DNA of 64,000 bases from NCBI RefSeq assembly GCF_003018255.1, contig NZ_CP027440.1, one strand, 5' to 3'. The notes below the pieces were generated by a model that did not search any database, was not told the DNA's origin, and was given only the letters and a program-made list of their open reading frames with translations. Within the stretch, counting starts at the first letter, position 1. Each line of letters starts with the position of its first letter. This document shows, one piece after another, positions 24,985 through 28,474 of this stretch. Position numbers and translations under genes: made by a program. This DNA comes from Escherichia coli (GTDB taxonomy: Bacteria > Pseudomonadota > Gammaproteobacteria > Enterobacterales > Enterobacteriaceae).

Positions 24985-25087
24985 TGCCGGATGCGGCGCG
25001 AACGCCTTACCCTGCCTACAAAATCATGCAAAATCAGTATATTGCAATTATCTGGTAGGCCTGATAAGCAAAGCGCATCAGGCAATC
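24985..25087. repeat. REP pair (BIME) between yaiZ and ddlA
   Basis: gccggatgcggcgcgaacgccttaccctgcctac and gtaggcctgataagcaaagcgcatcaggc in inverted orientation. Confidence 0.7.
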
Positions 25088-25141
25088 TTACGTTTGCCAT
25101 CAGTCTTAAATGCCCAATAAAAGTTATCAGGCATTTAAAAA

Positions 25142-26236
25142 TTACATTGTGGTTTTCAATGCGTTATCCGCAGCGTGACGCTCCAGCGCCAGCTCAATCA
25201 AACGCGTGATCAGGTCGGTGTAACCCAGACCGCTGGCTTGCCACAGCTTCGGATACATACTGATGTTGGTGAAGCCAGGCAGTGTGTTGATCTCGTTGAT
25301 CACCACTTCGTTCTCTGGGGTTAAAAACACGTCTACACGCGCCATGCCTGCGCATCCCAACGTCTGATAAGCCTGAACGGCAATCGCCCGGATCTTATCG
25401 TTGATTTCTGGCGCAATGGCTGCCGGAACTACCACTTTCGCGCCATCTTCGTCAATGTACTTGGTGTCGTAGGCATAGAAATCGCTGGTGAGTACGATCT
25501 CGCCACAGGTGCTGGCTTGCGGATTGTCGTTGCCCAGAACTGCGCATTCGATCTCACGACCTTTTATCCCTTGCTCAACGATCACTTTATGATCGAACTC
25601 GAACGCCAGATCGACGGCAATTGCGTACTGTTCTTCGCTGGTTACTTTGCTGACACCAACAGAAGAGCCCTGATTAGCCGGTTTTACAAACAGTGGTAAC
25701 CCCAGTTTAGACTCTACTTCGGCAAAACTGATGTTGTTACGATTAGCGCGCGTCAGGGTAATAAATGGCGCAATGTTCAGCCCGGCATCGCGCAGCAGAC
25801 GTTTGGTGACATCTTTGTCCATACAGGCTGCTGAAGCCAGAACATCTGAACCTACAAACGGTAAATTGGCGACCCGCAGCATTCCCTGCAAGGAACCATC
25901 TTCGCCCAGCGTACCGTGGACAATCGGGAAAATGACATCCACCGTCGGCAACGGCTGACCGTTTTGCGCGTCGATAAGCTGATGCTCATGTTTACCTGGC
26001 ACTTGCGCAAGGCTGGTCGCCGAAGGGCGCAACGCAATATGGGCAGGATCGTCTGCATTTAGCAGATAATTGCTGGCATCGCTGACGTGCCATTGCCCTT
26101 GTTTATCAATGCCCAGCAGCACAACGTCGAAGCGACTTTTATCAATGGCATCGACAATATTTTTTGCCGATTGCAGAGACACTTCATGTTCCGCTGATTT
26201 ACCACCAAAAACGATTCCTACCCGCAGTTTTTCCAT
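25142..26236 (-). CDS. ddlA: D-alanine--D-alanine ligase A
   Basis: 364 aa; ATP-grasp fold; recognised as DdlA. Confidence 0.95.
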
Positions 26237-26698
26237 CTTAAAAACCTATCCCGTCTAACACAAAGTGCATACATTACCACGACAAAACGGGGGATTCGCG
26301 GCCTTCTGACAGAATGTTGCAATCTTCTGCTGACAAAGCGTGCAACGTACTGGTGAAGAAAGTGCGTTATCTCAATGATGTGCGCAAGATCACAAAAATG
26401 ATGAACGGGAAGCTAATTTATTCCTGGCTTGTATGGCCATGCAGTGAGTTTTTTTCTCTTAATTATAAGTTAACGAAGAGAATATATTTCATAACTTTTA
26501 TTTATAATAAAGGTTGATAATTAAAAGCCTATATTTTGTGTGGGTAATTATTAAAATAAGAGAAACGTTTCGCTGGTAATCAAACAAAAAATATTTGCGC
26601 AAAGTATTTCCCTTGTCATAAAAATAATACTTCCAGACACTATGAAGTTGTGAAACATAATGTTAACTTCTCCATACTTTGGATAAGGAAATACAGAC

Positions 26699-26959
26699 AT
26701 GAAAAATCTCATTGCTGAGTTGTTATTTAAGCTTGCCCAAAAAGAAGAAGAGTCGAAAGAACTGTGCGCGCAGGTAGAAGCTTTGGAGATTATCGTCACT
26801 GCAATGCTTCGCAATATGGCGCAAAATGACCAACAGAGGTTGATTGATCAGGTAGAGGGGGCGCTGTACGAGGTAAAGCCCGATGCCAGCATTCCTGACG
26901 ACGATACGGAGCTGCTGCGCAATTATGTAAAGAAGTTATTGAAGCATCCTCGTCAGTAA
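26699..26959 (+). CDS. iraP: anti-adaptor protein IraP (RpoS stabiliser)
   Basis: 86 aa ([30 protein letters not shown]...), coiled-coil-like. Confidence 0.9.
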
Positions 26960-26979
26960 AAAGTTAATCTTTTCAACAG

Positions 26980-26997
26980 CTGTCATAAAGCTGTCAC
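26980..26997 (+). promoter_or_regulatory. Pho box (PhoB binding site) of the phoA promoter
   Basis: ctgtcataaagctgtcac matches the direct-repeat CTGTCAT consensus; -10 tatagt at 27008-27013. Confidence 0.85.
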
Positions 26998-27058
26998 GGC
27001 CGAGACTTATAGTCGCTTTGTTTTTATTTTTAATGTATTTGTACATGGAGAAAATAAA

Positions 27059-28474
27059 GTGAAACAAAGCACTATTGCACTGGCACTCTTACCGTTACTG
27101 TTTTCCCCTGTAACAAAAGCTCGGACACCAGAAATGCCTGTTCTGGAAAACCGGGCTGCTCAGGGCGATATTACTGCACCCGGCGGTGCTCGCCGTTTAA
27201 CGGGGGATCAGACCGCCGCTCTGCGTGATTCTCTTAGCGATAAACCCGCCAAAAATATTATTTTGCTGATTGGCGATGGGATGGGGGACTCGGAAATTAC
27301 TGCTGCACGCAATTATGCCGAAGGTGCGGGCGGCTTTTTTAAAGGTATCGATGCATTACCGCTTACCGGGCAATACACTCACTATGCGCTGAATAAAAAA
27401 ACCGGTAAACCGGACTACGTCACCGACTCGGCTGCATCAGCAACCGCCTGGTCAACTGGTGTCAAAACCTATAACGGCGCACTGGGCGTCGATATTCACG
27501 AAAAAGATCACACAACGATTCTGGAAATGGCAAAAGCCGCAGGTCTGGCGACCGGTAACGTTTCTACCGCAGAGTTGCAGGATGCCACGCCCGCTGCGCT
27601 GGTGGCGCATGTGACCTCGCGCAAATGCTACGGTCCAAGTGCGACCAGTGAAAAATGTCCGGGTAACGCTCTGGAAAAAGGCGGAAAAGGATCGATTACC
27701 GAACAGCTGCTTAACGCCCGTGCCGATGTTACGCTTGGCGGCGGTGCAAAAACCTTTGCTGAAACGGCAACCGCCGGTGAATGGCAGGGAAAAACGCTGC
27801 GTGAACAGGCACAGGCGCGTGGTTATCAGTTGGTGAGTGATGCTGCCTCACTGAATTCGGTGACGGAAGCGAATCAGCAAAAACCCCTGCTTGGCCTGTT
27901 TGCTGACGGCAATATGCCAGTGCGCTGGCTAGGACCGAAAGCAACGTACCACGGCAATATCGACAAGCCCGCAGTTACCTGTACGCCTAATCCGCAACGT
28001 AATGACAGTGTACCGACCCTGGCGCAGATGACCGACAAAGCCATTGAATTGTTGAGTAAAAATGAGAAAGGCTTTTTCCTGCAAGTTGAAGGTGCATCAA
28101 TCGATAAACAGGATCACGCTGCGAATCCTTGTGGGCAAATTGGCGAGACGGTCGATCTCGATGAAGCCGTACAACGTGCGCTGGAATTCGCTAAAAAGGA
28201 TGGCAACACGCTGGTCATAGTCACCGCTGATCACGCCCACGCCAGCCAGATTGTCGCGCCGGACACCAAAGCGCCGGGCCTCACCCAGGCGCTAAATACC
28301 AAAGATGGCGCAGTGATGGTGATGAGTTACGGGAACTCCGAAGAGGATTCACAAGAACATACCGGCAGTCAGTTGCGTATTGCAGCGTATGGCCCACATG
28401 CCGCCAATGTCGTTGGACTGACCGACCAGACCGATCTCTTCTACACCATGAAAGCCGCCCTGGGGCTGAAATAA
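27059..28474 (+). CDS. phoA: alkaline phosphatase
   Basis: GTG start 27059; 471 aa; signal peptide; active-site DSAASAT region; recognised as PhoA. Confidence 0.97.

Follow-up and report, generated by a model that had tools for sequence, protein, structure and literature searches.

What occupies the 462 bp between ddlA and iraP in Escherichia coli, and does this interval encode a product of its own? The question is raised by positions 26237-26698 of a 64,000-nt stretch of E. coli DNA (contig NZ_CP027440.1), which in its full length is called the window here. A preceding sequence-only reading had placed the ddlA-iraP spacer at these positions and had preferred to see in it the promoter region of iraP, with two doubtful open reading frames (ORFs), one of 67 codons on the plus strand (26314-26517) and one of 87 codons on the minus strand (26551-26814). 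Both flanking genes, the length of 462 bp and both ORFs were recovered at these positions. The analysis presented here indicates with high confidence that the spacer is non-coding regulatory DNA, a patchwork left by the loss of two genes, in which the ORFs are chance frames and iraP has two promoters, with an RbsR-type operator and a CRP/FNR site as putative further inputs. The iraP promoter region as such is already known; new relative to the searched literature are the deletion-scar origin of the spacer, the orphaned and constrained CRP/FNR promoter and the conserved RbsR-type operator.

Origin of the spacer by loss of two genes

A set of 80 iraP loci, one per species, was assembled and ddlA was located in each; gene contents and motifs were counted over 82 loci. 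The distance between the start codons of ddlA and iraP is 450-464 bp in Escherichia only; it rises to about 600 bp in three Citrobacter and to 1.6-2.5 kb at the remaining loci. Most other genera, Salmonella and Enterobacter among them, carry two plus-strand genes in this interval. The first encodes a 227-aa protein with an Extensin-like_C domain (PF06904), and the second encodes a major facilitator superfamily (MFS) transporter of about 400 aa, which reaches 543 bits against the MdtG model, just below its cut-off. Both genes are present at 52 of the 82 loci, the MFS gene alone at 12 and the extensin-like gene alone at one; Escherichia has neither.

Compared with these longer loci, the Escherichia spacer is evidently a mosaic of three blocks with sharp homology edges. 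Its parts are as follows.

26237-26318 (82 bp, no strand assigned): block A, adjoining the ddlA start codon, with ddlA's 5′ untranslated region (5′-UTR) and its probable promoter
26319-26374 (56 bp, no strand assigned): filler between blocks A and B, presumed site of the lost extensin-like gene, variable within Escherichia
26375-26437 (plus strand): block B, putative promoter region of the lost mdtG-like MFS gene, with a CRP site and a -10-like TAATTT at 26414-26419
26441-26698 (no strand assigned): AT-rich part with block C (26482-26693), the iraP upstream control region, 27% GC, homologous to the MFS-iraP spacer of Salmonella

Block A corresponds to positions 1-82 of the 107-bp spacer between ddlA and the extensin-like gene, and the homology stops abruptly at 26318. 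Block B (approximately 26375-26437) corresponds to the middle of the spacer between the extensin-like and MFS genes of Salmonella and Citrobacter. Block C matches the 296-bp MFS-iraP spacer of Salmonella from its position 80 to 291, and also the DNA upstream of iraP in most genera. The Escherichia lineage has very probably lost the extensin-like gene and the mdtG-like MFS gene between ddlA and iraP, and these losses fused three ancestral intergenic pieces, namely A (ddlA-proximal), B (promoter of the lost transporter gene) and C (control region of iraP). A tblastn search of the Escherichia and Citrobacter spacers with both lost proteins returned no significant remnant (all E > 0.25). The 56-bp filler was additionally considered as a remnant of the Salmonella sequence flanking the extensin-like gene, and this was discarded as its score of -11, at a shuffle mean of -8.4, gave no significant similarity. 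With regard to evolution, the locus is a clear case of gene loss by which regulatory fragments were joined and an orphan promoter was left behind that is still constrained.

The spacer had been described as AT-rich, which holds overall (34.6% GC versus 51.4% for the whole window, with only 1.3% of 462-bp windows equally AT-rich) but not as a uniform property: the left 204 bp have 44% GC and the right 258 bp (26441-26698) 27%. Its conservation within Escherichia is patchy, as is usual for regulatory DNA. The region was found in 5422 of the 5426 complete E. coli genomes, and the 662 bp around the spacer are 100% identical to E. coli strain DETEC-S792.

Further cases of gene loss were observed at this locus. 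In Citrobacter sp. NCU1, Awk 4 and R56 both intervening genes are missing and a longer transporter leader is kept than in Escherichia. C. amalonaticus S646 is without the transporter only; other C. amalonaticus have both genes. The ddlA-iraP interval thus looks like a recurrent gene-loss hotspot. A locus of the Enterobacteriaceae type with ddlA, the extensin-like gene, the MFS gene and iraP (IraP identity of 67%) was also found in CACSKA010000001.1, labelled Chryseobacterium sp. 18061; this assembly is probably mislabelled or contaminated.

The 67-codon reading frame

26314-26517 (plus strand): 67-codon ORF, hypothetical protein WP_001317654.1 of the Prokaryotic Genome Annotation Pipeline (PGAP), judged spurious

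The 67-codon ORF is very probably no gene, and is a reading frame assembled by deletion and an annotation artefact. Its start lies four bases before the first block junction and its frame crosses both junctions. The sole conserved stretch of its product, around the residues KITKMMNGK, coincides with block B DNA, and genera with a closed frame conserve this DNA too. The frame ends after 18, 18, 24, 44, 52 and 52 codons in six other Escherichia lineages, to which E. albertii, E. whittamii and cryptic clades belong, and indels of 1-2 nt occur inside it in other Escherichia. The variable sites at the three codon positions number 28/31/28 for the ORF, and 11/9/37 for iraP and 27/8/169 for ddlA in the same Escherichia genomes. 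The ORF thus has no third-position bias, and there is no sign of purifying selection on a protein.

Within E. coli the frame is open in about 99.7% of the 5426 genomes if either start allele is counted, the start codon being ATG in 1818 (33.5%) and TTG in 3593 (66.2%). K-12 has TTG where the window has ATG, and the four further differences between them are all non-synonymous (four versus zero synonymous). Of 2000 shuffles of the spacer that preserved dinucleotides, 14.4% gave a complete ORF of at least 67 codons, so the existence of the frame is not beyond chance. The lack of a convincing Shine-Dalgarno (SD) sequence noted earlier was confirmed by inspection of the upstream sequence, which contains nothing SD-like, whereas iraP has AAGGA. 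The product had also been called hydrophobic; with a grand average of hydropathy (GRAVY) of -0.02, an isoelectric point of 9.9 and a best 19-residue Kyte-Doolittle window of 0.56 it has no membrane segment, and this description was given up. Its homologues are confined to Escherichia/Shigella, have many lengths and form 56 protein clusters in databases. Pfam and NCBIfam searches gave no match, and the ORF is not among the entries seen in the supplements on the Enterobacteriaceae microproteome.

Public expression data were consulted for both starts of translation and starts of transcription, as the sequence-only reading had advised. For translation, the plus-strand entries of a permissive list of retapamulin-stalled initiation peaks (Ribo-RET) of E. 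coli BL21 in rich medium were used, which reaches down to approximately 0.6 reads per million (RPM; Stringer et al. preprint, Table S1). These entries contain the ATG of iraP itself (4.3 RPM) and no initiation peak between yaiZ and iraP, and thus none for a small ORF in the spacer. For transcription, the plus-strand primary 5′-ends obtained by Cappable-seq from E. coli MG1655 grown in glucose minimal medium (PMC4782308) were used. Window coordinates equal those of NC_000913.3 minus 374,687 and those of U00096.2 minus 373,911, which was checked against a site predicted with FITBAR (see below). In the plus-strand data, 5′-ends are listed at U00096.2 400543 (score 297.7), 400561 (3) and 400587 (167.6), which correspond to window positions 26632, 26650 and 26676, all on the iraP side. 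No plus-strand transcription start site (TSS) is listed between U00096.2 398889 and 400543, so none lies upstream of or within the 67-codon ORF.

In the Term-seq data (Adams et al. preprint), both strands are free of RNA 3′-ends from the ddlA terminator up to the interior of phoA. The same data contain a Rho-dependent (bicyclomycin-sensitive) 3′-end on the plus strand inside ddlA, antisense to this gene, at window position ~25654 (K-12 v3 400341). This end implies that antisense transcription enters ddlA from the yaiZ side, and that plus-strand read-through from upstream does not reach the spacer.

PGAP annotates the ORF, as WP_001317654.1 or a variant of it, in almost all RefSeq E. coli, a K-12 derivative included, whereas the curated MG1655 record NC_000913.3 is without any gene there. 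In this it resembles spurious automatic 'hypothetical protein' calls in AT-rich intergenic DNA, which likewise are pipeline-only and absent from curated K-12; it is a typical case with no notable difference, and here, too, the annotation follows any open frame, even into an IS1 insertion. The insertion was observed in E. coli O121 strain 201805972 (NZ_CP119441.1), in which a copy of the insertion sequence (IS) IS1A and a partial IS1 copy lie in the AT-rich part of the spacer, equivalent to window ~26478-26850. The iraP promoter and N-terminus are lost in this strain, iraP is reduced to a 3′ pseudogene fragment, and PGAP still annotates a 61-codon 'hypothetical protein' that extends into the IS. 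For annotation this means that thousands of RefSeq E. coli genomes carry a 'hypothetical protein' that is very probably no gene, and the reasons given here justify suppressing the call.

Two promoters of iraP

Control of the stability of the stress sigma factor RpoS by anti-adaptors is well studied, and iraP has been regarded as responding mainly to guanosine tetraphosphate (ppGpp). The transcription of iraP is reportedly activated directly by ppGpp/DksA. The elements of its core promoter region are as follows.

26614-26632 (plus strand): distal promoter P2 of iraP, with the conserved TCATAAAAATAATAC block as -10 region and the TSS at 26632
26661-26676 (plus strand): proximal promoter P1 of iraP, with the extended -10 TGTTAACTT at 26661-26669 and the TSS at 26676, 23 nt before the ATG
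26685-26689 (plus strand): SD sequence AAGGA preceding the iraP ATG
26699-26959 (plus strand): iraP (Pfam PF10796, E = 3.6e-34; NCBIfam NF007598), with a peak at its ATG among the Ribo-RET entries

The gene is transcribed from two promoters, with TSSs at 26632 (distal) and 26676 (proximal). Of the two, the distal TSS is the stronger in the Cappable-seq data from glucose minimal medium, with a score of 298 versus 168. The -10 elements TCATAAAAATA and TGTTAACTT are conserved and suitably placed for these mapped 5′-ends, as is expected of sigma-70 promoters. TGnTAACnT is found at -38 from the iraP ATG in most genera, with a mean identity across genera of 0.79, and the SD sequence reaches 0.90. 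The best plus-strand match of a promoter scan, CAGACA-16-CATAAT, was set aside in favour of TGTTAACTT, as it does not fit the mapped TSSs and its CATAAT is not conserved in Salmonella. Moreover, the core promoter and the 5′-UTR are invariant across Escherichia. With two strong plus-strand TSSs and none further upstream in the spacer in these data, the preference for an iraP promoter region over a coding function was borne out.

The proximal promoter is presumably the published promoter activated by ppGpp/DksA. It shares the locus with the known iraP promoter, it is conserved across genera, and its weak -35 and extended -10 fit a promoter in need of activation. In addition to what is known of that promoter, there is a second TSS at 26632, stronger in glucose, upstream DNA that represents a deletion scar, and two conserved sites further upstream.

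A conserved RbsR-type operator upstream of iraP

26557-26576 (centre 26566.5, no strand assigned): predicted RbsR-type (LacI-family) operator TAAGAGAAACGTTTCGCTGG, containing the palindrome GAAACGTTTC

The predicted operator forms a conservation island, with a mean identity of 0.80 versus 0.37 and 0.35 for its flanks, which is comparable to the -10 and SD elements of iraP. All Escherichia agree at positions 26558-26575, which are likewise unchanged in Salmonella and Citrobacter, and the palindrome GAAACGTTTC is perfect with a central CG. Among the 82 loci, those of Escherichia, Salmonella, Citrobacter, Enterobacter, Lelliottia, Kosakonia, Phytobacter, Pluralibacter and others have the motif in a fixed position relative to the iraP ATG, at -123 to -140. 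Compared with the rbsD operator of K-12, TCAGCGAAACGTTTCGCTGA, TAAGAGAAACGTTTCGCTGG is identical at 17 of 20 positions overall and at 16 of 17 in the core, and with up to two mismatches allowed the pattern occurs only here in the 64-kb window (0.04 matches expected). Judged by this resemblance, RbsR would be the most likely ligand of the conserved operator, as a repressor or activator input to iraP.

The site shares with the rbsD operator of E. coli the palindrome with central CG and the core, and one of its half-sites has A for C. The two differ in position. The rbsD operator overlaps its promoter/leader and represses, while the centre of the iraP site lies at -65.5 from the TSS at 26632 and at -109.5 from that at 26676, a position that suits activation or anti-silencing over simple occlusion. 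It is tentatively proposed that RbsR, the ribose repressor, binds 26557-26576 and either activates iraP directly or lifts its silencing, by which more IraP would be made without ribose and RpoS would be protected from RssB/ClpXP. We regard this as quite possible and as still somewhat short of probable.

Such a role would connect with published data from Salmonella. Deletions of rbsR and of iraP both confer fast growth on succinate (Succ+) and both lower the RpoS protein, and RbsR does not act on rpoS transcription; its route was left open as "indirect ... post-transcriptional or post-translational" (Wenner et al., PLoS Genet 2024, PMC10965054). Since the two deletion phenotypes are alike, direct activation of iraP by RbsR would explain these data economically. 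It would be the missing mechanism for the RbsR-dependent rise of RpoS and for the block of succinate growth in Salmonella (PMC10965054), it would tie sugar availability to the general stress response via an anti-adaptor, and the published question of a post-transcriptional RpoS increase by RbsR becomes directly testable. In the literature searched, no paper linking RbsR to iraP was found; PMC11237923, which names both, was a false match on a primer name.

A CRP/FNR site in a putative orphaned promoter region

26379-26394 (centre 26386.5, plus strand): CRP site TGTGCgcaagaTCACA, consensus with one mismatch

Block B has the layout of a class II CRP-dependent promoter, with TGTGC-N6-TCACA, 19 nt and a TAnnnT hexamer, from which a TSS at approximately 26426-26428 is predicted. 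In the genera that retain the MFS gene, the homologous spacer contains a conserved TGTGAcnnnnTTCACA, followed after 18 nt by GATAAAA, and the centre of the CRP site is situated about 41 bp upstream of the implied start, which is the class II arrangement. Positions 26379-26384 and 26390-26425 are almost invariant across Escherichia despite the loss of the gene, and both CRP half-sites are invariant.

Binding at this position has been described for both regulators. The CRP site was bound in vitro in Footprint-seq with a dissociation constant (Kd) of 1.2 nM and was listed as novel, with its centre at K-12 401077 (PMC12871828, 2026 preprint). A chromatin immunoprecipitation sequencing (ChIP-seq) peak of FNR was reported at U00096.2 400,328, which is window position 26417, and iraP was classed as directly FNR-repressed, being de-repressed in a fnr deletion mutant, with its known TSS outside the peak (Myers et al. 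2013, PMC3688515). The CRP/FNR-type site is the obvious target behind this peak. We infer that the orphaned CRP promoter may still fire; how FNR may repress iraP is likewise inferred. At the block B promoter, the plus-strand Cappable-seq data from glucose-grown cells contain no TSS.

Class II CRP-dependent promoters, with their site near -41.5, are matched by block B in spacing, in nanomolar in-vitro affinity and in a layout that is conserved upstream of the mdtG-like gene elsewhere. Block B differs from them in that the gene it served is deleted, no TSS is seen in glucose-grown cells, and the factor seen in vivo is FNR and not CRP.

In the proposed scheme, RbsR at 26557-26576 and CRP/FNR at 26379-26394 would act as upstream inputs to iraP. 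The RbsR-type operator and the retained CRP/FNR site together suggest that carbon-source and oxygen signals feed the same node of RpoS stability.

The antisense frame and the search for a small RNA

26551-26814 (minus strand): 87-codon antisense ORF with TTG start, overlapping iraP, judged spurious

The antisense ORF is conserved solely where it overlaps iraP. In other Escherichia it spans 25, 60, 87 (with a frameshifted tail) or 99 codons, its upstream sequence contains no SD sequence, and its product has no significant Pfam/NCBIfam match. By these features it is judged a chance frame and an annotation artefact. An Rfam scan of 25900-27200 at E up to 10 returned noise only (best E = 0.31, eukaryotic families), and a scan of the spacer region for intrinsic terminators returned none.

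Alternative explanations

Several points weigh against a reading of the spacer as non-coding regulatory DNA with CRP/FNR and RbsR-type inputs. The 67-codon ORF is intact in essentially all E. coli and is annotated by PGAP. The Ribo-RET entries consulted are from BL21 in rich medium and from the plus strand, and iraP itself is weak there (4.3 RPM), which leaves room for a condition-specific product; the cells behind the Cappable-seq data consulted were grown in glucose, so that CRP-dependent starts would be missed. E. albertii and one cryptic clade have G in place of T at 26414, where the -10-like hexamer begins. Beyond Escherichia, Salmonella and Citrobacter the RbsR-type operator has a degenerate left half-site, and the actual ligand could be PurR or Cra. 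Finally, a route mediated by rbsD is favoured by Wenner et al. (PMC10965054).

The 67-codon ORF could be a real young protein, small, basic and specific to E. coli/Shigella, born de novo on the deletion scar. The open frame in nearly all genomes, the PGAP annotation and the 56 protein clusters speak for it, and yet its start is polymorphic, with TTG in two thirds of the genomes and no SD sequence, all four differences from K-12 within it are non-synonymous, and a frame of such length has a chance expectation of 14%. The frame is truncated in all other Escherichia lineages, and its codon-position variation is flat, unlike that of iraP and ddlA. Its only conserved core is the DNA of the CRP site and promoter, kept where the frame is closed; the Ribo-RET and Cappable-seq data consulted show neither an initiation peak nor an upstream plus-strand TSS, and Rho stops the antisense read-through from upstream. 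Taken together, we consider such a protein extremely unlikely. It is very unlikely, too, that the spacer encodes a stable small regulatory RNA, as which its length, its conservation in patches and its strong TSSs could be taken: these TSSs, 23 and 67 nt upstream of iraP, are accounted for as starts of mRNA, Rfam gave no match above noise, and neither an intrinsic terminator nor, on either strand, a Term-seq 3′-end is found in the spacer.

With regard to the regulatory sites, the palindrome at 26557-26576 might serve not RbsR but another LacI-family regulator, PurR or Cra, or it might be conserved for an unrelated reason. LacI-family operators have the AAACGTTT core in common. In genera other than Escherichia, Salmonella and Citrobacter the left half-site of the palindrome is altered to GAAAAAC or GCAAAAC, with the right half CGAAAC unchanged, and no link between RbsR and iraP was found in the searched literature. 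On the other hand, the core match of 16/17 to the actual rbsD operator of K-12 is better than that to the consensus of PurR (GCAAACGTTTGC) or Cra (TGAAACGTTTCA), and the rbsR deletion mimics the iraP deletion in Salmonella (PMC10965054); a ligand other than RbsR is accordingly rated as rather unlikely, if a serious competitor. The orphan CRP/FNR promoter, in turn, might be active and give rise to an iraP mRNA with a long leader (5′-UTR of ~270 nt) or to an interfering non-coding transcript, by which iraP would answer to cyclic AMP-CRP and oxygen. Despite the loss of the cognate gene, the class II geometry is kept and 26379-26425 hardly varies within Escherichia. CRP binds at 1.2 nM in vitro (PMC12871828), the FNR peak is only ~30 bp away, and de-repression of iraP in the fnr mutant with the known TSS outside the peak is in line with such activity (PMC3688515); the hypothetical leader, moreover, folds somewhat better than shuffles (z = -2.4). 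This is countered by the Cappable-seq entries, which show no TSS there, though the culture was in glucose, by the lack of a Term-seq 3′-end in the spacer, of an intrinsic terminator and of an Rfam family, and by the variable first base of the -10-like hexamer in two lineages. The site need not be a promoter itself and could also influence the mapped promoters, or ddlA, from a distance. An active orphan promoter is therefore regarded as doubtful; if it were confirmed, a CRP/FNR-dependent promoter would have outlived its gene and been co-opted to modulate iraP.

Neighbouring features and further observations

25142-26236 (minus strand): ddlA, flanking the spacer
26279-26271 (minus strand): predicted extended -10 TGGTAATGT, candidate ddlA promoter, from sequence only
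26530-26552 (minus strand): NagC-type site, FITBAR prediction (PMC3098098, Table 2, site 400463 'iraP ddlA'), doubtful
27059-28474 (plus strand): phoA, downstream of iraP

Block A is nearly invariant within Escherichia, and in almost every genus positions 1-82 upstream of ddlA are 70-87% identical to it. It holds the ddlA 5′-UTR and probably the ddlA promoter, for which TGGTAATGT is the candidate. The NagC-type site was set aside, as it is poorly conserved even within Escherichia and has a mean identity across genera of 0.37.

In Salmonella, repeats of the GGTTTA...CGTTTA type are located ~20-60 bp upstream of the RbsR-type operator; the E. coli sequence at this place is AT-rich and unrelated. 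PhoP control of iraP is reported for Salmonella, not for E. coli, and these repeats may correspond to it. Additionally, a palindromic unit gcctgataagcaaagcgcatcaggc resembling repetitive extragenic palindromic (REP) elements was observed in the gap between yaiZ and ddlA, at window positions 25040-25100.

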